Source: a virus | Taxonomy: Duplodnaviria; Heunggongvirae; Uroviricota; Caudoviricetes | Length of the DNA: 41,142 bases | IMG/VR virus record: IMGVR_UViG_2718218402_000007 | Span: 1 to 41,142 of that record | Strand: one strand, 5' to 3' | Shown here: in pieces, positions 2,369 to 41,142 of the stretch | Layout of the letters: each line of letters opens with the position of its first letter | How positions within the stretch are numbered: position 1 is the stretch's first letter | Translations under genes and position numbers: made by a program | Notes under the pieces: generated by a model | Seen by the model: the letters and a program-made list of their open reading frames with translations, nothing else | What the model was told of the DNA's origin: nothing | Database searches by the model: none

Positions 2369-2790
2369 CCTCGCGCATACAGCCGGGCAGTGACGTCATC
2401 GTCTGCGCGGAAATGGACGAACAGTGGGGCTATGTCGGGGCTAAATCGCGCCAGCGCTGGCTGTTTTACGCGTATGACAGGCTCCGGAAGACGGTTGCTG
2501 CGCACGTATTCGGTGAACGCACTCTGGCGACGCTGGGGCGTCTTATGAGCCTGCTGTCACCCTTTGACGTGGTGATATGGATGACGGATGGCTGGCCGCT
2601 GTATGAATCCCGCCTGAAGGGAAAGCTGCACGTAATCAGCAAGCGATATACGCAGCGAATTGAGCGGCATAACCTGAATCTGAGGCAGCACCTGGCACGG
2701 CTGGGACGGAAGTCGCTGTCGTTCTCAAAATCGGTGGAGCTGCATGACAAAGTCATCGGGCATTATCTGAACATAAAACACTATCAATAA
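2287..2790 (+). CDS. insB: IS1 InsB reading frame (expressed as the InsAB' transposase by -1 frameshift)
   Basis: 167-aa ORF overlapping the 3' end of insA in the -1 frame, the canonical IS1 arrangement. Confidence 0.9.
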
Positions 2791-2862
2791 GTTGGAGTCA
2801 TTACCTTAGCTCACATTATGAGGAAAGGTATCTTTTTGCGCTATGTAAATTCAAAGGGTTAG

Positions 2863-3732
<870 letters not shown>

Positions 3733-3792
3733 GTCTTTAAGTGATAAGCATAAACCGCAGCACGATCTTCTTGCATACGACGTGCTACGGTT

Positions 3793-4347
3793 TCATTTAT
3801 CTCCGACCGGAAACTTCTTACACAGTGTCGATATACCAACATCATAGATGATCGCCACCTTCTGGCGAGGAACGCCTGATGCAATTAATCGTCCGGCCTG
3901 CTCCCATTGTTCTGGTGTAAGTTTGGGGCGACGTCCACCAATTCGTCCCTGTGCGCGAGCTGCTTCCAGTCCAGCTTTTGTTCGTTCAACAATCAGTTCA
4001 CGCTCCATTTCAGCCAGGGCACCCATCACATGAAAGAAAAAGCGCCCCATTGGGGTACTGGTATCAATTGAATCCGTCAGACTACGAAAGTTGATGCCTC
4101 GTTCGCGCAACTCCTCCACCAGCACGACAAGATGCCGCATACTACGCCCTAGCCGATCCAGCTTCCAGACAACCAGAGTGTCACCTGCCGATAATGTCCT
4201 GAGCAGTTTTTTCAGTCCCGGCCTTTCGGACTTTGTACCGCTTATCTTGTCTTCAAAAATCAGCTCGCATCCTGCACAGTTCAGCGCATTACGTTGTAGA
4301 TCTGTGTTCTGGTCATTTGTTGACACACGTACATAGCCAATAAGCAT
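3793..4347 (-). CDS. pin: Serine-recombinase DNA invertase (Pin/Gin/Hin/Cin family)
   Basis: Starts MLIGYVRVSTNDQNTDLQ with the catalytic serine motif and a C-terminal HTH; GGGAG Shine-Dalgarno 9 nt upstream of ATG at 4347. Sits immediately beside an invertible tail-fibre segment. Confidence 0.9.
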   Translation of the reverse strand: MLIGYVRVSTNDQNTDLQRNALNCAGCELIFEDKISGTKSERPGLKKLLRTLSAGDTLVVWKLDRLGRSMRHLVVLVEELRERGINFRSLTDSIDTSTPMGRFFFHVMGALAEMERELIVERTKAGLEAARAQGRIGGRRPKLTPEQWEQAGRLIASGVPRQKVAIIYDVGISTLCKKFPVGDK

Positions 4348-4401
4348 GGTAGATCTCCCTGACAAAAGCAGGAATGATGCCATTTGCTCGTTATTTCTGC
4401 A

Positions 4402-4427
4402 TTTTCATAAACGTTGGTTTGGGAGAA
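4402..4427. other. Invertase crossover site (gix/pix-like), left copy
   Basis: TTTTCATAAACGTTGGTTTGGGAGAA; its inner half GGTTTGGGAGAA is the exact inverted repeat of TTCTCCCAAACC at 6270-6281. Resembles the hix/gix consensus (..AAACC..GGTTT..). Confidence 0.7.
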
Positions 4428-4775
4428 GCGGCGAAAAGGGATGTGGGCACAGGAGAAAATCAGATACCGGATATGTCATCCTGGAAAAGAAATCCGAGTT
4501 CTAATCGCTGGAGAAAATTGCCTGATGGAACCATCATTCAAATGGGAATATCAGCATCAGGGCCATTAGGCTCACCTGTAAATATCACCCTGCCGATATC
4601 TTTCAGCAATACCAATTATTGTGTTGTTGCATCGTACGATAATGCACGGTCAGGTGTGTCAACAATGGTTAGTTTTGCAGCATTACCTGTTTCACCATCG
4701 CAATTTTCCCTGATGTCATCTGTGACTGAGCAAGGAATAAATCCTTTTGCTTACTGGATTGCTTTTGGAGATTGA
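4416..4775 (+). CDS. Alternative tail-fibre C-terminal cassette (Sv'-like), promoterless in the present orientation
   Basis: The ORF begins inside the crossover site; the junction peptide ...VGLGE is shared with the expressed tail-fibre gene (...LGLGE at 6270-6295). Followed by its own tail-fibre assembly gene. Confidence 0.6.
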   Translation, partial: GLGEAAKRDVGTGENQIPDMSSWKRNPSSNRWRKLPDGTIIQMGISASGPLGSPVNITLPISFSNTNYCVVASYDNARSGVSTMVSFAALPVSPSQFSLMSSVTEQGINPFAYWIAFGD

Positions 4776-4778
4776 TAA

Positions 4779-5198
4779 ATGGACAGATACTTCTATTCAC
4801 AAAAAGAAAATGGTTTTTTTACCGATTTAAATAAAGCACCTTCAGATGCTGTTGAGATAACCACGGATGAATGGCTGTCACTACTGGATGGTCAGGATAA
4901 TGGCATGAAAATAGTCAGCAATCAGGAGGGATATCCGGTTTTGACAGAGCAACCACCTTTATCAAAAGAAAACCTTATTGCATTGGCAGAGTTGAAAAAA
5001 GGAAAACTTATTAATGAAGCCAACGAGCACATGAACAGCAGGCAATGGCCTGGTAAAGCGGCTATTGGTCGTCTGAAAGGTGAGGAACTGGCGCAATATA
5101 ATTTGTGGCTGGATTATCTGGACGCACTGGAACTGGTTGATACCTCCAGTGCTCCAGATATTGAATGGCCTACGCCTCCGGCAGTTCAGGCCAGATGA
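4779..5198 (+). CDS. Tail fibre assembly protein (U'-like), silent orientation
   Basis: 139 aa; the C-terminal motif (...LDYLDALELVDTSSAPDIEWPTPP) parallels the C-terminus of the convergent assembly protein at 5170-5772. Confidence 0.7.
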   Translation: MDRYFYSQKENGFFTDLNKAPSDAVEITTDEWLSLLDGQDNGMKIVSNQEGYPVLTEQPPLSKENLIALAELKKGKLINEANEHMNSRQWPGKAAIGRLKGEELAQYNLWLDYLDALELVDTSSAPDIEWPTPPAVQAR

Positions 5199-5772
5199 CA
5201 TCCGGCGCGGTGCTGGTATCTGTTGCCGTCACCGCGTCAATGTAATCCAGCACGGCGTTAAGTCTGGTTGTTTCTGCCTGCGTCAGTTTACGTCCGGCCT
5301 GTAATTTCAGCTGAATCAGACTAATGGAAGCCATTGCTGCATCAATCAGTGACTGGCGCTGTGCTTCTGCCGCGTCTACTGCGGCACTATGCTGTGCCTC
5401 AGTATCTGTCACCCATTTCTCACCATCCCATTTATCGTATGGCGTTAACGGGACGATAGTGGTTGTATTTTCAGGGTAATCACCCGGAGCTGTGATTTCT
5501 TTTGATTCTCCCGTTTCGGTGTTATAGACAACTTCACCGCGATGGTCTGGCACATATTCCCATGAGTTAAAATCTGCAGAACGGCAGATTGCATAACCAG
5601 CTTTATGTGTAACTGGTGCATCTAAACAAGAACATGCCGGGATACCGACGCCAACCGCAAGATATTCAGTTGATGTGGAAATATATTCCCGCGTTTCACC
5701 ATCATAATTATAAATGGTAATGTCTCCCGCTTTTATGGCAATGAGTTCGTTATTTAATACGGCTTTATTCAT
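5170..5772 (-). CDS. Tail fibre assembly protein (U/Tfa-like), expressed orientation
   Basis: 200 aa with a conserved Tfa C-terminus (...LDYIDAVTATDTSTAPDVIWPELPEA); directly downstream of the tail-fibre gene. Confidence 0.8.
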   Translation of the reverse strand: MNKAVLNNELIAIKAGDITIYNYDGETREYISTSTEYLAVGVGIPACSCLDAPVTHKAGYAICRSADFNSWEYVPDHRGEVVYNTETGESKEITAPGDYPENTTTIVPLTPYDKWDGEKWVTDTEAQHSAAVDAAEAQRQSLIDAAMASISLIQLKLQAGRKLTQAETTRLNAVLDYIDAVTATDTSTAPDVIWPELPEA

Positions 5773-6572
5773 CAGGCAGCTCTCACGATATAATTAAAGG
5801 CAATGTTACGAGGACGGTTTTCGTTTGCAGTTGGAACAATTCTTGAAGCATCAAGACCAATCACTTTTGGGTAAACAGCGCCATCTGTTCTTTCAGTCAC
5901 CATACTTCTGATTAAGGAGAAATAACTATTGTTCGTTGAGGGGTTCAAAGGCACTACTGCCCCCTTAAACGAGCCTACTGATTCCCATATTGAATAATTT
6001 TCGGTGTTTACAGTCTTGAACTCACCATAGATATTACGTATGGCATCGCCCTGAGCGGATAATATTGCCCTCCCCGTATCCATACCACGTCCGTCATCCC
6101 AGCCACGAATAAACTCACCACGTAAATCAGGCAATTTATTTGTCGGGTAAGCCTTTGCCAGCTCCGGGTATTCTTCAGCAGAAAAAGCTGCTCCGTTGCA
6201 TTTCAGCCAGCCTGTTGGCGGAGTGGCTGAAGGCCACGGAACAGGCACCCCAACAGGTAATGCAGAGCCTTCTCCCAAACCAAGGTTTTCGAGAGCCGTT
6301 TTCACCGTGCCATCCGATTTGATATCGCCAAACGGATTCTTGCGGCTTAACAGCAGCGCACGAAGCGCGGTAAGCAGCTGGTCGTGCCGCGCCTTCTCCA
6401 GACTGGCACCGGATGCCTCCACCACGCTACAAAGTTCTTCCTGCAACATGTCAAAGTAGTCATCATCCAGATCGGTGGCAGGCGTGCCAGTCTGGGGGTT
6501 ACCACGGGTAAAACCGTTCTTACCCGCGCCGAACTTATCCTTCTGCGCGGTTTTCGTGTCTATACGATGCAT
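5772..6572 (-). CDS. Tail fibre protein (constant N-terminus plus invertible C-terminal part)
   Basis: 266 aa; ATG at 6572 with GGAG Shine-Dalgarno. Contains the right crossover site, so residues after ...LENLGLGE are exchangeable by inversion. Confidence 0.8.
6270..6295. other. Invertase crossover site, right copy, inside the tail-fibre gene
   Basis: TTCTCCCAAACCAAGGTTTTCGAGAG; an internally symmetric site (CCAAACC AA GGTTTTC) in inverted orientation relative to the 4402-4427 site. Confidence 0.7.
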
Positions 6573-6575
6573 GGA

Positions 6576-7160
6576 TTACTCCGGATATTTAAAAATTACG
6601 TAGGTATGCGACGGGCAGAGTTTGTTAAGCACGCACTCGACAACGGTGTCGCCCCAGATACGCAGTGCGGAATCACAGGGATCGCCACATGTCATCCAGG
6701 TGGTGTTGGTGGCGGCTGGCATGTTGACCTGCCAGTAATACCGCCATTCCGGCGCATTCACCGCGTCAGTACAGGCCGATGAGCAGGTGAACGTGCTTTT
6801 GTCGTATCGCGTGATGGTAGCGTCTGGTCTGCCCAGGGCAGCAAGCTGTGCAAGGTAAAAATCCTCGTTGATGCCGCCCGCCAGGTTAACCTTCGCATCC
6901 AGTCGTTGCTGACGCTGGCGAAGGGTCTGTGTCCCTGCGGGAATACATTCATCCGGCAGACCGCACAGACGCTCCCAGCGGTTTATCAGTTCAGTGGTGG
7001 TGCGCGGATCCAGCTCCCGCATCAGGGCATCCGCACGCTGATGAACGCGGGTTAATGAAGGTGCCGCACCGGCAATCGCCGGATCGCTGGCTGACCATGC
7101 AGGACCGGGCGGCAACAGTGCCGATAACAGGCGGATGTAATCATCGTTTGTCACGTCCAT
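6576..7160 (-). CDS. Tail/baseplate protein (Mu gp48 / DUF2313-like)
   Basis: 194 aa; position between baseplate J and the tail fibre; family recognised from sequence. Confidence 0.7.
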
Positions 7161-8209
7161 GAAATCGTCCCCAGAACCGCCAGTTCATTTTTTGCAATGG
7201 AGATATTGTCCGCCGGGGCAAGCAACTGATGGCTGTATTCCCCGTTCGCACCGGAAATCGCCTCACTGATACGCGATACCTTCAGTTCTCCCTGCGGATA
7301 ACCATCACGCAGCAGGAACGAACGCAACTCGGCGGTGATGGCAGCCCGTATTTCCGGTGTGTCCGGCGTCACGCGGATATGAAAATCCACTTTATGCGCC
7401 ACCGGCCTGAATACATACAAATCAGAGCCTGCCACCGGGGCCAGTGGCTCAATGTGTTGTCTTGCCGCCGTTTCCGTTGATTCTTCCGGAATGGGATTAA
7501 TCAGGTCACTGCTGGCAATCATCACACCGACAGTTCCCGTTCCCATCCAGTGACGGTATGTCCATGCGCGGGTAATGCCGGGCACTTCTTTAGCCCAGAC
7601 GACATAGTCCACGTCAGCCCCGCCCTGCGGCGTCCAGTAATACCGCTCAATGATGCGGGCGCGCCACGTTTCCAGATCTTCAGTATCAAATCCGCCTGTC
7701 AGGGTGTCAGCCACACCGGAAGACGGCAGACCATTCACCGGCGTGACCAGGATTAATGACGTACCGTCGTCAGCGTTACCGACCGCGCCTGAACTTGAGC
7801 AGGCGATCGGCACGCGCAGGACACCACCGGAGCTGGTTGCATCGGCAGTTGCCGTGTACTGAACCAGGTCATCGCGCTGAATAACACTCCCGGCGGTCAC
7901 CTTCAGGCCATCGCTGACACCTTCCCAGCGCATATACCCGCTGGCAGCCGTGGCCCCCTTGCGCGGACACCGTTTCATCGCAGCATGTCGCGCCAGCCAG
8001 GACTCATCGCACAGGTCAGGCAGCATGTTCATTGCCAGATAATCGATGTACCCGTAAACCGTATGCAGCGCCGCCGCATACACCTTTGCCCGCACGTCTT
8101 CATCCATGCGCCGGAGCGTGTCGCTGACGTCCAGCCTGGCGAATAAATCGTTACGGAGCATACTGATATTTTCTGCCAGCGTCGGGCGCTGAAATTCACT
8201 GTCCGCCAT
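7151..8209 (-). CDS. Baseplate J-like protein (Mu gp47-like)
   Basis: 352 aa; size and position in a Mu-type baseplate operon. Confidence 0.8.
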
Positions 8210-8624
8210 GCGTTATCGCACTCCACAGATCATCAAAAGAAATCATTACCGGTCCGTCACGACGCCAGAGAGTGATACTGTTACCCAGTTCATTAATCCC
8301 GGTGCGGCGGATATCCAGATCAATACGGGACACCACGCCGTCATCAATCATCCATTGCAGGCATTCGCGGATATACCCCCTTACCGTCTGCACCAGCTGA
8401 TTGGTCAGTTTGCTGCGCTGAAGCAGCCACAGTCGGGAGCCGTAACGGTCATTCTGTACCGCAGGCCAGGTATCCCCCCACCATCCCATCGGGACGTCGG
8501 CGTTGTCATCAGGCTCCGCCCGCCGCCAGGTAAACAGGGAAATCACCACGGCGCGGGTCAGCGGATCCAGTTGTGCGCTGGCGCAGGTGCGTTTACCGTT
8601 CACCGTCAGCCACAGTTCCATCAT
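8196..8624 (-). CDS. Baseplate protein (Mu gp46-like)
   Basis: 142 aa; operon position between the spike and baseplate J. Confidence 0.7.
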   Translation of the reverse strand: MMELWLTVNGKRTCASAQLDPLTRAVVISLFTWRRAEPDDNADVPMGWWGDTWPAVQNDRYGSRLWLLQRSKLTNQLVQTVRGYIRECLQWMIDDGVVSRIDLDIRRTGINELGNSITLWRRDGPVMISFDDLWSAITHGGQ

Positions 8625-9169
8625 GCCTCCATCGCTTTATCAGGTTTGTCGGTGTTACTGCCCTGACCGTTCTCTCTGTGACGATGCCCGTTATAGGCAA
8701 GCCGCATCGCTGACATGGTGGTGCCGGTGGAGTCGCACAGGTCTTTCACCTGTCCGGTCACTTCCAGGTCCATTTCAAAACGTGCCTTAGGCGCATTGCG
8801 AAACGTGATCGTTTTACCTGCACCGTCCACCACGATCCCCTCCCGGGCCAGCGTCACGGACTGCCCCTGATCGTCATAGACAGCCACCTCACCCGTCTGC
8901 AGCCCTTTCAGGCGGTAGCGCCGGTCCGACACCGTAACAACCACCGCATGAGAACGGTCGCCATCCGGAAACAACACCACCGCTTCCGCACCGCTGTTTG
9001 CCCTTGCGGTAAAACCGTAGGGTTCAAGATGTTCAACCCCGGCTTTGGGTTCACCGGCAATCAGGGACACATCCACGGTCTGACATTTCGTGGCGGCACT
9101 GATGCTTTTCACCACTGCCCGCCCAATCAGGCCGAGGAGTTGTCGCTGCATGGCTTCAATCGCCCTCAT
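8621..9169 (-). CDS. Baseplate assembly/spike protein V (Mu gp45-like)
   Basis: 182 aa; family recognised from sequence and operon position. Confidence 0.75.
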   Translation of the reverse strand: MRAIEAMQRQLLGLIGRAVVKSISAATKCQTVDVSLIAGEPKAGVEHLEPYGFTARANSGAEAVVLFPDGDRSHAVVVTVSDRRYRLKGLQTGEVAVYDDQGQSVTLAREGIVVDGAGKTITFRNAPKARFEMDLEVTGQVKDLCDSTGTTMSAMRLAYNGHRHRENGQGSNTDKPDKAMEA

Positions 9170-10248: not shown

Positions 10249-11621
10249 TGCACTGGCACCTTCAGAGGGATCACCGGCACAAAGCCGGGATGCGTAATGG
10301 CATTACGCCGGATAATGTCCGCGTCACGCGCCGCGTTATCAAACCAGGTCGCCGCCAGCACCAGCGCGGGTAAAACCTCATCCGGTGTGCGCTGAATGAT
10401 CCGTGCAGACTGTTCAAGGCGCGTGTTGATATCCGCATTCAGATCTGCTTTCACCCGGCGCAGCGCCAGAAACAGCGCATCACTGGTTGTACGGGACAAC
10501 TCCTTATCAATTGCCGTATTCAGTGTGTCGCGAATGTCAGTCAGTTCTTCCCACGTCGGCAGGTCAACCGTGTTTTTCACCGCCGGTGCATTGTTCAGTG
10601 CCGGATGCGTGACGGAAGGCCAGCCAGTGCTCTGCGCAGGTGTTGTTGCCTGCCCCACTGCGGAATTCTGCATCACCGCGGAAGTTGTTGGCGCAGGCAA
10701 TCGGGTGACGGCATACGCCGCTTCACTGATTGCGGTCGTACGAAGGGTGCTGGCAACCACATTACGCTGCTGCGTAGCCGTGGCGGTGGTTTTACTGTCC
10801 GTTTTCCAGACGCCGCGCGGTTGCAGATCGCTGCCGAGGCTGACACCGGAAAGCGTTTTGATCATGGTGACCAGGTCGCTGGCGTTACCATAAAGGCGTT
10901 TCCCGGTACGCCACATTTTCTGCACCTGCTCAACGAGATTTTTGCCTGACGATGGTGGCGGCAGAAGTACCGAGATATCCCCCTGCAACAGCCTGGCAGC
11001 ATCCGATACGGCAGAATCCACCACTTTCATCGCATCAGAAACATACCCAAGCATTGTGCTGACATTACCAACGACGTCGTTCTGCACGAAATCCGCCACG
11101 CCATCGATACTGAAACCTCTGAAGCTGTCACTGATGCAGTCATCCAGTGCAGAACAGGATGACATCAGCGTCTGCGCCGTCGCCGCACCTGAAGTGGGGT
11201 AAGAGAGTTCTCCCGCTTCGACAAACTTCAGGTCAAAGCGGACAATACGCCCTTCACTCTTCGATGTGCTGACCCGAACTTCTCCGTCAACACAGACTTT
11301 CAGCTCACCGTATGTCGGATGGACAAGCGTGCCGGGACCGGGTTTATTCAGCGCGTCAATCAGGCGATCGCGCTGGTCAAAGCAGTCATCTCCCACCACA
11401 TAAGCCGTGATGGACGAGCGAAAAGTGATTTTCCCCAGGTCTTCGGTATAGGGTTTGTCGCGGTTCGGGTATTCATGTGTTTCCACACGGCGACCGGTTC
11501 CCGCACTTTCTTCTTCAACCTTAAACGGCACGCCGCGAAATGACGCGTCCTGAAGTCTGTCACGCCAGCCTGAAGACGACGAAAGTAATGAAGGTCGGGT
11601 GGGAAATGAGGATAAATCCAT
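10245..11621 (-). CDS. Tail/DNA circulation protein (Mu gpN-like)
   Basis: 458 aa, directly downstream of the tape measure gene as in Mu-like tails. Confidence 0.75.
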   Translation of the reverse strand: MDLSSFPTRPSLLSSSSGWRDRLQDASFRGVPFKVEEESAGTGRRVETHEYPNRDKPYTEDLGKITFRSSITAYVVGDDCFDQRDRLIDALNKPGPGTLVHPTYGELKVCVDGEVRVSTSKSEGRIVRFDLKFVEAGELSYPTSGAATAQTLMSSCSALDDCISDSFRGFSIDGVADFVQNDVVGNVSTMLGYVSDAMKVVDSAVSDAARLLQGDISVLLPPPSSGKNLVEQVQKMWRTGKRLYGNASDLVTMIKTLSGVSLGSDLQPRGVWKTDSKTTATATQQRNVVASTLRTTAISEAAYAVTRLPAPTTSAVMQNSAVGQATTPAQSTGWPSVTHPALNNAPAVKNTVDLPTWEELTDIRDTLNTAIDKELSRTTSDALFLALRRVKADLNADINTRLEQSARIIQRTPDEVLPALVLAATWFDNAARDADIIRRNAITHPGFVPVIPLKVPVQ

Positions 11622-11645
11622 AGACTGACCTCAAAAAGGACTGCG

Positions 11646-13553
11646 TTATCGTGGAAAACGAAAAGGGGAATACCCCACATCGTGCGTGATTTTCATCAGG
11701 GGATCGGCTTTGCCCGGTACATCAATTATCTTCATACCTGGCGGAGCATTCTCGAACGTGACTTTCAGCTCGCTGTGCTGTGTCATGGAAGAAGATGGAT
11801 TCAACAGCGGAACATTGGGTTTGTACTGACTCAGGCTGGCCTGATACTGCTCGTACTCTTTACGATCAAAAAAAGGCGTCCAGTCTGAAGCCAGAAACAG
11901 CCCTTTATTATCCAGCCAGTTAACCGTATCTTCAGGAACAACACTTTCCAGAGTATCTTTAACCGGCTCATACATCAGGGTTCCCAGAAAACCATATACC
12001 CCGGCCTTCCCGATAAAGCCGCGGCCTTTCCCCATCAATCCCGTTTCTGCCGATACCTTCCCCAGCGTACGCATCTCTCTGGTCACTGCGGTAATGGATT
12101 TGGTAACGTCAGCAACCCATTTGGTTGCCATAAACAGGGCAATCGCTTTCAGAACAGTTTCCCATCCCCCCATCGCCTGCGCCGTTTCATCCACCACGTG
12201 CCAGACTTTTTTTATGACAGGACCTACGGTTTCCCAGTTATCAATAATGAGGTAAGCGCCACCAACCAGAAGAGCAATCAGCCCCTTAGCAGGCGTCATA
12301 TTCATCACACCGCCGAGAACTTTCATAATTCTGGACAAAGAGCCTGCAGCGGCTCCCACCGTCAGTAAGGCCAGACCGATTTTAGCAATGGTCTTAACGA
12401 GCTCCGGGTTTTCACGGACAAACGTTCTCACTTCCTCAAGGAGCGGTTTTACCTCTTCAAGACCATCATTAACCTCAGGAAGAAACGTTTCCCCCAGCGT
12501 GGAAGAAATGGCATCAAGTTGATTTTGCAGAAGTAAAAGCTGGTTTTCCGTCGTCGCTGCCCTCGAAGCATATTCCTTCTGCATCGAACTGCCATACTGC
12601 TGGGAATCCGCAACCCGCCTGAAGTTGGTACGCAACAAATCAAGGTTAGTCAGCAGAGGTGCTATCGCGCCCAGAGACTCTTTCCCGAACAGGGCATTCA
12701 GCACAGCTGCCTGTTTTTCTTTGGGCACTTTAGCCATCGCATCCAGTACAGACAGCATGGTTCCCCGGGCATCTTTCTGCATATCAGCAGCTAATTTCTT
12801 CGGATTGATCCGCAGAAAACGTAATGCCTGTTTCTGCGATTTTGTCGCGGAATTTCCCGCGGTCAGGGAAAGCATGAAGTTCTTGATCCCTGTGGCGGCA
12901 ATTTCTGACTCCACGCCCATCCCGGCAATGGTTGCCCCCATTGCCGCGATTTCGCCGGAAGCCACACCTGCAACACCACCTAAAGGACCAATACGCGTAA
13001 CAATATCGGAGATTTTCTTCGCATTCGCCGGGCCGGTATTACCAAGGTAGTTGATTTTGTCAGCCAGCCCGGCCACTTCATCCTGCGTCATATTAAACGC
13101 AGTACGCCACTGGGCCATCATCTGCCCGGACTCTTCAGCCGTGGTATCAAAGGCCACGCCCATCTTCACCGCATCAGTGGCAAACTGCATCAGTTCATCA
13201 CGTGCAATCCCGGCCTGACCGCCAGCCGCCACAATTTCCGCGATCCCGTCTGCAGACATGGGAAGCTCAGTAGACAAAGCGCGTACCTGCTCCGTCATGG
13301 CCTTAAACGCATCCGGCGTATCCAGACCGTCTACCACTTTGCGGACATCAGCCATCTTCGATTCAAGGGTGATGGCTGATTTTACAGGGAGTGCCAGTGC
13401 CCCCATTATTGCAGTACCCGCCCCGGCAGCGCCCAGAGCAAGGCTGGAGACTTCTTTCTGAAACCCCTTAAGCTGACGCTGCATACCTTTAAGCGGGCCG
13501 GACAGCCTGTCAACGGCGGTGATGATGGCTTTCAGCTGAAAATTATCAGCCAT
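11646..13553 (-). CDS. Tail tape measure protein
   Basis: 635 aa, Ala/Gly-rich with long predicted helical and membrane-like stretches; located between the tail-tube/chaperone genes and the baseplate genes. Confidence 0.85.
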   Translation of the reverse strand: MADNFQLKAIITAVDRLSGPLKGMQRQLKGFQKEVSSLALGAAGAGTAIMGALALPVKSAITLESKMADVRKVVDGLDTPDAFKAMTEQVRALSTELPMSADGIAEIVAAGGQAGIARDELMQFATDAVKMGVAFDTTAEESGQMMAQWRTAFNMTQDEVAGLADKINYLGNTGPANAKKISDIVTRIGPLGGVAGVASGEIAAMGATIAGMGVESEIAATGIKNFMLSLTAGNSATKSQKQALRFLRINPKKLAADMQKDARGTMLSVLDAMAKVPKEKQAAVLNALFGKESLGAIAPLLTNLDLLRTNFRRVADSQQYGSSMQKEYASRAATTENQLLLLQNQLDAISSTLGETFLPEVNDGLEEVKPLLEEVRTFVRENPELVKTIAKIGLALLTVGAAAGSLSRIMKVLGGVMNMTPAKGLIALLVGGAYLIIDNWETVGPVIKKVWHVVDETAQAMGGWETVLKAIALFMATKWVADVTKSITAVTREMRTLGKVSAETGLMGKGRGFIGKAGVYGFLGTLMYEPVKDTLESVVPEDTVNWLDNKGLFLASDWTPFFDRKEYEQYQASLSQYKPNVPLLNPSSSMTQHSELKVTFENAPPGMKIIDVPGKADPLMKITHDVGYSPFRFPR

Positions 13554-13637
13554 GCTTCATCTCCTCATTTATACGGACGGCCTCTGCCTCCAGATCAGCA
13601 AAGTGGGAAATAGCCGTCCGGCGAAGTTCAAGGGGGT

Positions 13638-13961
13638 TTAATTTCCAGAACCACGCGACATTGTAGAATCGCTTCCGGAGGTCTCTTCCGTCTCCAAGCC
13701 GGTAAAAAAACGCATTACAATCATGCCTGCCTTGAAAATATCCAGCTTCGTCATCTGCGCTGCAGACGAGCGCGGGATCCCGGCCAGAAGCGGGATATAT
13801 TTCAGCGCTACCTGACTGTCCATTTTCATACCACCATCAGGTGAAACAGAGAAAGGGAACCCCAGCGCCTCAATCTCGTCATACGTAGGCTCACGTATTT
13901 CCAGCACATGCAGTGTTTCTTTGTGGGCGATGATCGGTTTTTTAAGTACAAGCTCAATCAC
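13638..13961 (-). CDS. Tail assembly chaperone (Mu gp41-like)
   Basis: 107-aa ORF between the tail tube and tape measure genes. Confidence 0.6.
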   Translation of the reverse strand: MIELVLKKPIIAHKETLHVLEIREPTYDEIEALGFPFSVSPDGGMKMDSQVALKYIPLLAGIPRSSAAQMTKLDIFKAGMIVMRFFTGLETEETSGSDSTMSRGSGN

Positions 13962-27586: not shown

Positions 27587-28522
27587 ATGCTCTTGGGAGA
27601 TAATGAACGTTTCATGATCAAATGCCAGGTTACTTTAAAGAAGTATCCTAATGACGCACCTGACATGCCTTTAGTAAACTGTATTCCTGTTTTAAAAAAT
27701 CGCTATAACAAAGGAGAAGCTGTTTACGAATTAAACAAAGGACGTTCTGTCATAAGATTGCTATCCATAAAAGACGATGAAAATTACCTGAAATTGCTTT
27801 TTCAATATATAAATAAAGATGCTTCTGATCCCGCCTTTTCCAACATAAAAACTGGTGAAACCAGAATTGAGAAAAAGCAAAATGATGAAGGTATGGGGTA
27901 CTCTGCTCATGTGCTTATCAAAAAAAGACCGAGCGACTCATCATTCCAAGATTGTTATGAGGCAATTTTAGAAGAAGTTCCGGGCATTACCAGAGGTTTA
28001 TTAGCCCAAGCTTTAACTTATTTCCTGCGAGAAAATAATTTTTCCTTTATCCGTTCAGGAGGGAAAAAAGAACTTAAGTGCAGACCTATTTTCGACATTG
28101 ATTTTTTGGCTGCAACAACACTTGAGCAATCTCTATCCACTGGTTATTTATGTGGACTTACTGCTACTCGTCGCTTTAAAGATAACTCTTTAGATGATGA
28201 TGGCACAGTAATGGTTGAAGAAGAAACACTAAAGCTATCAACAAAAATACGTCGCGGAGAGGGTGCAATTAAGGCGATTAAGTCTGCATATGACAAACTT
28301 CGTGGTAGAAAGTATACAATGTTAAGAATTTCTTATAAAGACAAAAATAAACGCGTTTCATCAGATCTTGTTTCCATCGGAAAAGAAATGAGCTTACAGG
28401 AACTCGCAACAGCACAATTGGCACAACGTGAAAAAGCAGTGTTGGCATCAACAATTGCCGTTTGCCAAACAGCATTTCACGCAGAACTTCTCGCAAAAAT
28501 GCAAAACTTTATGTTAAAGTGA
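27587..28522 (+). CDS. Uncharacterised soluble protein (311 aa), first gene of the AT-rich cassette
   Basis: ATG at 27587 with AAGGA Shine-Dalgarno 6 nt upstream; strongly AT-rich relative to flanking phage genes; no catalytic or NTP-binding motif recognised by eye. Confidence 0.7.
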   Translation: MLLGDNERFMIKCQVTLKKYPNDAPDMPLVNCIPVLKNRYNKGEAVYELNKGRSVIRLLSIKDDENYLKLLFQYINKDASDPAFSNIKTGETRIEKKQNDEGMGYSAHVLIKKRPSDSSFQDCYEAILEEVPGITRGLLAQALTYFLRENNFSFIRSGGKKELKCRPIFDIDFLAATTLEQSLSTGYLCGLTATRRFKDNSLDDDGTVMVEEETLKLSTKIRRGEGAIKAIKSAYDKLRGRKYTMLRISYKDKNKRVSSDLVSIGKEMSLQELATAQLAQREKAVLASTIAVCQTAFHAELLAKMQNFMLK

Positions 28523-28554: not shown

Positions 28555-29124
28555 ATGTATGTTTTATCTAAGGTTTTTACACCTATAGACTACCTACGCA
28601 TAAAGCATCCTGAGAAGCGATTTTTTGACTGGGTTTTACCCATTTTCACTGCTGCAATTATTACTTTATCCATCTATTACTTACCGAAAACCATCTCACT
28701 TCTCGGGAAGGATAGTCTTGTGTCTTTAGTAAACGGGATACTTCAAATACTATCTGGTTTTTACATTGCATCTATGGCTGCAGTTGCAACCTTCAGTAAG
28801 GATGGTATGGATGAAGTTATGCATGGCATACCTCCGGTATTAAAAGGTAAAAAACTTACAAGGCGTAAATTCCTCACTTATCTATTTGGTTATTTAGCGT
28901 TTATGAGCATCGCGCTGTATTTCGTTGGAGGAGCACTTCAACTAACCAGCGCAAGCATCAAGGAATTACACCTTTCATCATATCCACTAGTGAAATCATT
29001 ACTTTTGTTTATTTATTTAAGTACCATATGCAACATTATATACACAACGGCATTAGGTATGTATTTTATGATAGACAAAATGCATGATGAAAAATCGAAA
29101 CTTATAATTAAAGATAAAGAATGA
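28555..29124 (+). CDS. Uncharacterised membrane protein (189 aa, four predicted TM helices), second gene of the cassette
   Basis: AGGAGG Shine-Dalgarno 5 nt upstream of ATG at 28555. Four hydrophobic helices: WVLPIFTAAIITLSIYYL, LVNGILQILSGFYIASMAAVATF, FLTYLFGYLAFMSIALYFVGGAL, LLLFIYLSTICNIIYTTALGMYFMI. Confidence 0.7.
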   Translation: MYVLSKVFTPIDYLRIKHPEKRFFDWVLPIFTAAIITLSIYYLPKTISLLGKDSLVSLVNGILQILSGFYIASMAAVATFSKDGMDEVMHGIPPVLKGKKLTRRKFLTYLFGYLAFMSIALYFVGGALQLTSASIKELHLSSYPLVKSLLLFIYLSTICNIIYTTALGMYFMIDKMHDEKSKLIIKDKE

Positions 29125-39698: not shown

Positions 39699-39774
39699 TG
39701 GTGCCGATAATAGGAGTCGAACCTACGACCTTCGCATTACGAATGCGCTGCTCTACCAACTGAGCTATATCGGC
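39699..39774 (-). tRNA. thrW: tRNA-Thr (anticodon CGU), thrW-like; prophage attachment site
   Basis: Reverse complement reads GCCGATATAGCTCAGTTGGTAGAGCAGCGCATTCGTAATGCGAAGGTCGTAGGTTCGACTCCTATTATCGGCACCA: cloverleaf with D and T arms, anticodon loop TTCGTAA, encoded CCA end. Confidence 0.9.
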
Positions 39775-39888
39775 CCTGAAAGGACATGTTCACGAACGTG
39801 AATCACGGTGGACAAGGTTAAAACTAACCGGGCGATGCGTCAATGGCCTTGTGAATCAAATGGCTACTTTTGCATCACCCGGTTTTAT

Positions 39889-41142
39889 TTACGCACGAAT
39901 GGTGTAATCACCAATGCCGATCCACTTGTAAGTGGTCAGTGCTTCCAGCCCCATTGGGCCACGCGCGTGGAGTTTTTGTGTGCTTACCGCCACTTCCGCA
40001 CCCAGACCAAACTGGCCGCCGTCGGTAAAACGCGTAGAGGCGTTAACGTAAACAGCGGACGAATCCACTTCGTTAACAAAACGCTGGGCGTTGCGCATAT
40101 CGCGGGTCAAGATCGCATCGGAGTGTTGTGTGCCGTGTTCACGAATATGGGCGATGGCATCGTCAAGATCGCTGACGATTTTGACGTTCAAATCTAATGA
40201 CAGAAACTCATCGTCATACTCTTCGGCTTTAACAGCAACCACCTTCGCAGGGCCTGTCTGCAACTGCGCCAGTGCAGCTGCATCTGCGTGTAATGTCACG
40301 CCGCTTTCCGCCATTTGTTTGCTTAATGCGGGCAGGAAGCTATCGGCGATGTTTTTATTCACCAGCAACGTTTCAACCGTATTACATGTGCTCGGACGCT
40401 GAGTTTTCGCGTTGACGATCACTTTTAATGCTTCAGCGATCTCTACACTTTCATCAACGTAAATATGGCATACGCCTATACCACCTGTGATCACCGGGAT
40501 TGTCGACTGTTCACGGCACAGTTTATGCAAACCAGCGCCACCACGCGGGATCAGCATGTCGATGTATTTATCCATACGCAGCATTTCACTGACCAGCGCA
40601 CGGTCAGGATTATCAATCGCCTGCACGGCACCCGCCGGTAAGCCGCAGGATTTCAGGGCGTCCTGAATCACCGCCACCGTTGCAGCGTTAGTGCGACACG
40701 TTTCTTTGCCACCGCGCAGGATCACCGCATTACCGGTTTTCAGGCACAGCGAAGCGACATCAACCGTCACGTTCGGGCGCGCTTCATAAATCACGCCAAT
40801 AACCCCCAGCGGTACGCGACGACGCTCAAGACGCAGGCCGCTGTCCAGTACGCTGCCATCGATTACCTGCCCCACCGGATCGGCGAGGTTACACACCTGG
40901 CGCACATCATCGGCAATGCCTTTCAGCCGTGCGGGCGTCAGTGCCAGACGGTCAAGCATCGCTTCGCCAAGGCCATTGGCACGCGCGTCAGCAACATCCT
41001 GGGCGTTAGCGTTGAGGATGATTTCGCTTTGTGCTTCCAGTTCATCGGCGATTTTTTCCAGCACGCGATTTTTTTCGCGGCTGGAGAGTTGCGCTAATTT
41101 ATACGAGGCTTGCTTCGCGGCAATGCCCATTTGTTCCAGCAT
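39889..41142 (-). CDS. proA: Gamma-glutamyl phosphate reductase ProA
   Basis: 417 aa starting [38 protein letters not shown], recognised as enterobacterial ProA; start codon is the last three bases of the window. Confidence 0.95.

Follow-up and report, generated by a model that had tools for sequence, protein, structure and literature searches.

A Pin/P-segment inversion switch orthologous to that of e14, very probably functional, in an SfV-like prophage at thrW

The DNA considered here is the 41,142-bp virus record IMGVR_UViG_2718218402_000007, referred to below as the window. At its tail-fibre locus is the gene of a serine DNA invertase, pin, which lies next to a DNA segment bounded by two crossover sites in inverted orientation. 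The locus is very probably a functional Pin/P-segment inversion switch, an orthologue of that of prophage e14, and it resides in a full-length SfV-like myovirus prophage at thrW by proA. The system itself is already known, as the Pin/P-segment switch has been described since the 1980s. Is the switch of the window in working order? Evidently it is active, on four independent lines of evidence: exact alleles are found in pairs of opposite orientation, near-isogenic strains (CX15 and CX07) differ in orientation, a census of complete genomes contains both states and the K-12 literature documents switching. The initial annotation, made from the DNA letters, had assigned the locus to the Mu G-segment type. 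The logic is indeed the same, but the closest relative is the e14 P segment with PinE and not Mu G with Gin.

The initial annotation had also proposed a search for both orientations of the segment, and public assemblies show both. With the identical 184-amino acid Pin as query, a look-up of contigs in public assemblies finds loci in the same context, i.e. with a PD-T4-3 defence gene, IS1 and corA on one side and the gp48 and baseplate J genes on the other, and these occur in both configurations. Assembly GCA_054548415.1 has 0 mismatches to window positions 2811-8847 in the present orientation, and the Logan assembly of SRR33441791 has 0 mismatches to positions 2780-8847 of the window flipped in silico. 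Two complete chromosomes, CP058796.1 in the present orientation and CM129609.1 in the flipped one, show 25 mismatches each over 8.8 kb. In Escherichia coli CX15 and CX07, which have equal chromosome lengths, an exact inversion of the segment is the sole difference in a 5.9-kb comparison, and the breakpoints fall within the 15 bp shared by sites identical to those of the window. The census of complete E. coli genomes, at a coverage of at least 80%, counts 28 records with the window orientation and 18 with the flipped one. Sister isolates in opposite states are present in the census as well (JE86-ST02/ST05, APEC E18005/E19025 and OkiPb01707/01691). For K-12, inversion of the e14 P segment by PinE has been described, and cultures contain the two states side by side (PMC12529663, PMC4272514).

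Prominent in the locus are the two 26-bp crossover sites. The pin-proximal site, pixR, is at 4402-4427 (+ strand) and consists of TTTTCATAAACG-TT-GGTTTGGGAGAA, with the core TT at 4414-4415. The second site, pixL, is within the fibre gene at 6270-6295 (+ strand) and consists of TTCTCCCAAACC-AA-GGTTTTCGAGAG, with the core AA at 6282-6283. On the + strand one core dinucleotide reads TT and the other AA, so that the sites are inverted with matching cores, which inversion requires. A scan of the whole window with the Din-family consensus TTNTCNNAAACCNNGGTTTNNGANAA, with up to 3 mismatches allowed, gives 2 matches only, pixR and pixL, each with 1 mismatch; 0.03 matches are expected, and a two-match outcome was obtained in 0/100 shuffles. 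The alignment to a consensus that had been suggested at the outset thus leaves a single mismatch per site, and the comparison can be carried further, since both the dix consensus for 26-bp Din sites and the sequences of pixL and pixR have been published (PMC3241671). Letter for letter, the pixL of the window equals the published e14 pixL (Table 3, PMC3241671), and the reverse complement of pixR, TTCTCCCAAACC AA CGTTTATGAAAA, matches the published pixR of the same table. Both sites are 26/26 identical to those of e14 in K-12 MG1655. A 26-bp site of the Din type had been recognized correctly in the initial annotation, where it was termed gix-like; with their AA/TT core the sites are more precisely pix.

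The 12-bp inverted repeat first noticed at 4416-4427 and 6270-6281 is real. The sequence GGTTTGGGAGAA has one copy per strand, at 4416-4427 (+) and 6270-6281 (-), and no further copy with up to 1 mismatch is found in the whole 41,142-bp window, where 0.24 matches would be expected. The exact repeat is in fact longer, i.e. 15 bp (4414-4428 and 6269-6283), and over 20 nt (4409-4428 and 6269-6288) the complementarity is 95%.

The DNA between the cores, 4415-6282, is the equivalent of the P segment and measures 1,868 bp, in agreement with the roughly 1.9 kb first estimated. Its limits are given by the in-frame inversion in silico and by the natural flipped copies. The segment was thought to hold two convergent sets of a fibre C-terminus with an assembly gene, and Pfam and PHROG matches bear this out: fibre and Tfa are on the minus strand, the alternative tip and Tfa' on the plus strand, and each tip has its own chaperone. 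The present tail-fibre gene (5772-6572, - strand) encodes 266 amino acids and matches Pfam Collar (1.2e-15) and PHROG tail fibre (1.8e-81). It is composed of a constant N-terminus (6283-6572, ~97 amino acids) and a variable C-terminus with the collar domain (5772-6281), and its exact 266-amino acid sequence is present on 471 public contigs. The chaperone of this C-terminus, Tfa (5170-5772, - strand, 200 amino acids), matches Pfam Caudo_TAP (4.6e-32). Its start overlaps the stop codon of the fibre gene (ATGA at 5772), an arrangement of translational coupling. The alternative fibre C-terminus is unfused and is found at 4374-4775 (+ strand), the cassette proper being 4416-4775. It matches Pfam Gp53-like_C (1.6e-13) and the PHROG classes tail fibre and virion structural protein, and it forms a pin-proximal open reading frame (ORF) of 133 amino acids that can be read from an ATG beyond the segment (4374/4377). 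Its chaperone, Tfa' (4779-5198, + strand, 139 amino acids), matches Caudo_TAP (2.3e-26) and PHROG tail fibre assembly (1.5e-53) and is coupled to its tip by the arrangement GGAG-N9-ATG at 4779.

The 3' ends of the two chaperone genes overlap by 29 bp (5170-5198), as do those of tfaP and tfaE in K-12. The overlap is flanked by an 18-nt inverted repeat, 83% complementary (5108-5125 and 5234-5251), which reflects a C-terminal motif common to the two Tfa proteins (LDYLDAL and LDYIDAV).

What would inversion produce? The shared half-site encodes GLGE (GGT TTG GGA GAA) in both reading directions, and the junctions read ENLGLGE in the expressed fibre gene and INVGLGE in the pin-proximal ORF; the conserved junction peptide of the initial annotation is accounted for in this way. 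Its prediction that the alternative C-terminus would be fused in frame also holds. When 4415-6282 is replaced in silico by its reverse complement, an uninterrupted fibre of 216 amino acids is obtained, with ~97 constant residues, GLGE and the gp53-like tip, followed by Tfa'. This 216-residue fusion and the 183-amino acid pin-proximal ORF of the flipped state are both present verbatim in NCBI. Upstream in the same minus-strand late tail operon are the Mu gp48/YmfQ gene (6576-7160) and the Baseplate_J gene (7151-8209), which match Pfam Phage_Mu_Gp48 and Baseplate_J.

The pin gene (3793-4347, - strand) encodes a 184-amino acid serine DNA invertase of the Din family, as indicated by Pfam and PHROG matches and by identity to PinE and Gin. 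The true start is the ATG at 4347 (MLIGYVRVSTNDQ...); the start at 4383 of the listed ORF is not. The protein contains the Pfam domains Resolvase (1.6e-51) and HTH_7 (1.3e-10) and matches PHROG 'DNA invertase' at 5e-96. It is identical to K-12 PinE at 176/184 positions (95.7%), and it aligns over its full length with the Mu Gin structures 3UJ3 and 4M6F (E about 1e-93, ~78% identity). The catalytic Ser9 is present in VRVSTNDQ, where it aligns to the Ala of 3UJ3 (VRVATNDQ) and the Ser of 4M6F; R42 is conserved, as is the WKLDRLGRS motif. In Hin, K47, basic residues at 48 and 51, Q151, R154 and L155 have been identified as specific to invertases that depend on Fis and the enhancer (PMC3798978). 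All are retained in Pin, where K46, K47, R50, Q150, R153 and L154 correspond to Hin 47, 48, 51, 151, 154 and 155. The invertase was originally placed 55 bp from its site; the invertase and the site at 4402-4427 stand, but the spacer between the pin start and pixR is 54 nt, just as long as the one that separates gin from its gix site in Mu. With a full-length Pin, its catalytic serine and no inactivating mutation in the pin of the window, the switch is intact, as had been surmised. A promoter and terminator scan of 3600-6800 gave nothing above shuffle expectation, and because the hits are at chance level, neither pin nor the pin-proximal ORF can be given a promoter.

A recombinational enhancer, sis, is predicted inside the 5' end of pin at 4263-4325. 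It would comprise two Fis-type 15-bp cores, at 4311-4325 and 4263-4277, that fit the degenerate motif KNNYRNNWNNYRNNM and have their centres exactly 48 bp apart. The distances to the crossover centre are 96.5 and 144.5 bp, and the cores cover pin codons ~8-28. Of the shuffled sequences, 1.6% contain such a pair. Mu gin and K-12 pinE carry the motif pair at the same aligned positions and with nearly identical sequence.

Following the Hin/Gin paradigm, from which invertasome assembly, double-strand cleavage, rotation and religation are taken, Pin dimers would bind the two pix sites (4402-4427 and 6270-6295), and host Fis would occupy the predicted enhancer, whose two sites both fall in the first ~85 bp of pin. 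The Pin and Fis complexes would come together in an invertasome on supercoiled DNA. Ser9 would then cut both strands at the central TT/AA, a half-tetramer would rotate by 180 degrees and the DNA would be rejoined, leaving 4415-6282 inverted. As read from the sequence, the fibre gene in either case keeps its constant ~97 codons (6572-6283) and receives one of two tips together with the matching chaperone: in the present state the collar-domain tip and Tfa (a 266-residue fibre), in the flipped state the gp53-like tip and Tfa' (216 residues). By analogy with the G segment of Mu and the C segment of P1, the two states would give virions with different receptor-binding tips, a form of host-range bet-hedging.

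Several points weigh against a Pin-driven, virion-directed switch in this prophage. The pin-side end of the prophage adjoins IS1-corA, and the att repeat of thrW is not found in the window; the prophage may be unable to excise cleanly, and if so, the host-range function in virions would be moot in this host. Flipping in trans by another invertase of the host is possible, as PinQ does this in K-12 (PMC12529663). Fis binding and enhancer activity are predicted from a degenerate motif and positional homology. The evidence for both orientations comes from static assemblies.

Could the two orientations in the databases have an origin other than Pin? One might suppose that the locus is a frozen relic and that rare RecA recombination of short repeats, or assembly error, produced the flipped records. 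The comparison covered static assemblies only, which is compatible with such an origin, but it is very improbable. The exact repeat is just 15 bp, far below efficient RecA substrates. The two states recur independently in CX15/CX07, JE86-ST02/ST05, APEC E18005/E19025, OkiPb01707/01691, the chromosomes CP058796.1/CM129609.1 and the zero-mismatch pair SRR33441791/GCA_054548415.1; the recurrence spans several lineages and phage backgrounds, and the breakpoints are always in the pix core. The locus has intact sites and an intact Pin, and switching in K-12 experiments is Pin-dependent (PMC12529663, PMC4272514). That inversion occurs mainly in trans, by a different Din-family invertase of the PinQ/PinR type with little contribution from the adjacent pin, is less far-fetched, though still quite unlikely. 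Din invertases do cross-complement. In K-12, the stronger inverter of the e14 P segment is not PinE but PinQ, which is encoded by prophage Qin (PMC12529663), and pinE is frameshifted in the near-identical prophage of E. coli MLI104K1. The pin of the window, however, has its full length and lacks none of the catalytic and regulatory residues, and the canonical cis layout is kept, with the site, the 54-nt spacer and the predicted enhancer within the gene.

A different question is what the inversion is selected for. In K-12, StfE2 of e14 is reported to block adsorption of T2 after inversion (Kirigo et al. 2025, PMC12529663). It is conceivable, if unlikely, that here too the segment flips and the selected role in the lysogen is defence by a free receptor-binding domain rather than virion host range: a 17-amino acid leader that starts at the ATG of 4374/4377, joined to the pin-facing cassette, would mask receptors against superinfecting phages in the manner of StfE2. 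The ORF at 4374-4775 has the StfE2 architecture, i.e. a leader of the type MPFA.YF.IFINVGLGE and a gp53-like_C domain. All Pin-type loci that were examined conserve the outside ATG, as does Mu. In the window, CX15, K-12, MLI104K1, the P2-like prophage of OkiPb01707 and the flipped chromosome CM129609.1, an ATG-ATG precedes GLGE by 14/13 codons; in Mu the ATG is at -13. As the ATG-ATG is conserved outside the segment (4374-4415), the 'silent' cassette is in every case an ORF that has a potential start of its own. A PD-T4-3 defence gene directly adjoins pin, and the prophage end is rearranged, which also fit a defensive role. However, no promoter-like site above chance was detected for ORF 4374-4775 in the scan of 3600-6800, an AGGA at 0-3 nt from the ATGs is poor Shine-Dalgarno spacing, and export of the product is putative only. 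The ATG is in the 5' leader and promoter region of pin and may be conserved for that reason. The gp53-like tip is just ~31% identical to the K-12 tip, the ORF matches none of the PADLOC models, and the StfE2 result in K-12 rests on overexpression. There is a slim chance, then, that the locus has two outputs, a virion tip and a free protein that masks receptors, of 133 amino acids at present (gp53-like) or 183 amino acids when flipped (collar-type). If this were true, the pin end of the prophage would be a phase-variable defence island together with the adjacent PD-T4-3.

How does the Pin/P-segment switch of the window compare with that of e14 (pinE, stfE, tfaE, tfaP, stfP/ycfK, ymfQ)? Both 26-bp sites are identical, and the gene order, the 29-bp tfa overlap and the ORF with an outside leader are the same. 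Identity is 96% between the constant fibre part and StfP residues 1-105, 98.5% between the gp48 protein and YmfQ, and 92.5% between Tfa and TfaE. Tfa', in turn, is 55% identical to TfaP. The collar-type tip is 58% identical to StfE and the gp53-like tip ~31% to the StfP tip; the variable cassettes are therefore different alleles from those of K-12. The segment is 1,797 bp in e14 and 1,868 bp in the window. The MG1655 reference is in the opposite orientation, with the StfE-type tip being the fused one in the window. Whereas e14 is a 15-kb remnant at icd with mcrA beside pin, the window holds a roughly 37-kb complete SfV-like prophage at thrW/proA with PD-T4-3 in that position. With another integration site and other tips, the locus represents an orthologous system in a different prophage and not e14 itself. 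An invertase with 94.6% identity is recorded for vB_EcoM-689R6. That partial record contains the host genes icd and mnmA and represents a prediction from the e14 region, and it was left out of account as evidence for a viable phage.

The G segment of Mu with Gin follows the same logic, with a constant Sc, two convergent Sv/U cassettes and the invertase just outside. Mu gin also has the 54-nt spacer and the same positions of the Fis motifs, and Gin is ~78% identical to Pin. But the gix half-sites and core (GA/TC) differ from those of pix (AA/TT), the G segment is ~3 kb, and S and U are larger and not closely related in sequence. Because of these differences in site, size and S-U sequence, the locus falls outside the Mu G family proper. 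Hin with hix of Salmonella and Cin with the C segment of P1 belong to the same Din family of Fis/enhancer-dependent invertases that act at 26-bp dix-type sites. The Hin residues that contact Fis and the enhancer are conserved in Pin, and the site sequences differ. Hin flips a promoter, not coding cassettes. A multiple-inversion system such as Min of p15B or a shufflon was considered and rejected, as the window has just two sites; moreover, the recombinase is a serine invertase, whereas shufflons use the tyrosine recombinase Rci.

Of interest are P2-like prophages that carry an invertase, e.g. those of OkiPb01707, an 'Escherichia phage P2' from O157:H43 T22 and the Klebsiella phage Kp4845-2, in which the module shows 86-96% nucleotide identity to that of the window. 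In OkiPb01707 the identity is ~96% over window 3887-6294, and the module is joined to a 445-amino acid P2 H-type fibre within a P2 baseplate and tail gene set. Related copies are found in P2-like phages of Klebsiella and Salmonella. In many genomes the homology stops at the outer edge of pixL (window 6294), and neither the constant fibre part nor the backbone of the P2-like prophages is related to that of the window. Judging by these alignments, the module of pin plus segment moves between unrelated phage tail backbones, here SfV-like and P2-like.

The prophage of E. coli MLI104K1 is 99.2-99.5% identical to that of the window outside the segment. The interior of the segment (window 4454-6030) is non-homologous, and just a patch of the Tfa C-terminus (5055-5451) aligns there, at 90%. 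In addition, pinE is frameshifted and the pin-proximal (pixR) half-site has a G-to-A change (GGTTTAGGAGAA). Unlike the locus of the window, the MLI104K1 copy is a decaying switch with replaced cassettes. The tape-measure region, 11562-13923, is the sole other block that does not align between the two prophages, and MLI104K1 has an extra hypothetical gene of 531 bp upstream of its tape-measure gene. The tail module is mosaic here as well, in a second patch.

As to the host prophage, its morphogenesis genes are ~97% identical to those of the Shigella phages SfIV, SfII, SfI and SfV and of the E. coli phage vB_EcoM-720R4. Other prophage genes are those of an integrase by tRNA-Thr and proA, an S24-type repressor, DUF968, KilA-N and a methylase. 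In the 99% identical prophage of MLI104K1, genes for Q, lysis, terminase, head and tail are annotated as well.

The gene next to pin, at 2959-3732 (+ strand), is a full-length PD-T4-3 (PADLOC E 2.4e-140; Pfam LEM-3-like GIY-YIG). The same slot is occupied by McrA in K-12 e14 and by a DinI-like gene in CX15, and it looks like a variable defence or moron slot beside the invertase. A PADLOC candidate pair, PDC-M53A (1e-17) and PDC-M53B (1.6e-39), is found at 27587-28522 and 28555-29124 (both + strand), flanked by the late methyltransferase on one side and the Q antiterminator region on the other. The two matching genes have no Pfam domain, and their PHROG matches are without assigned function.

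At the pin end of the window, corA (974-1939) is bracketed by a truncated yigE-like ORF and by two inverted copies of IS1, which share 331 bp of inverted identity (1-331 and 2038-2368). The integrase end is at tRNA-Thr/proA (39699-41142 side) and the pin end abuts IS1-corA (1-2830); in K-12 these loci are far apart. When the thrW region was compared with the rest of the window for an att repeat, just a 14-bp chance match was obtained, and the pin-side boundary of the prophage therefore cannot be defined. The arrangement points to an IS1-mediated chromosomal rearrangement that parted the prophage from attR. The IS1-corA arrangement is common to MLI104K1, GF66.2, TW14425, 3036 and 11PC.

What does this locus add? 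Its value as a discovery is small, since many RefSeq genomes of E. coli already have near-identical copies annotated as pinE, tfaE and stfP. It does provide a clean worked example of an inversion switch, with the exact allele in both orientations, a portable module and a decaying sister copy in MLI104K1. The forward-looking aspect is the recent claim of a phage-defence role for the non-fused cassette of e14. For that claim the prophage of the window would offer a second test case, since its gene set is intact, its gp53-like allele is a different one and PD-T4-3 is a direct neighbour.

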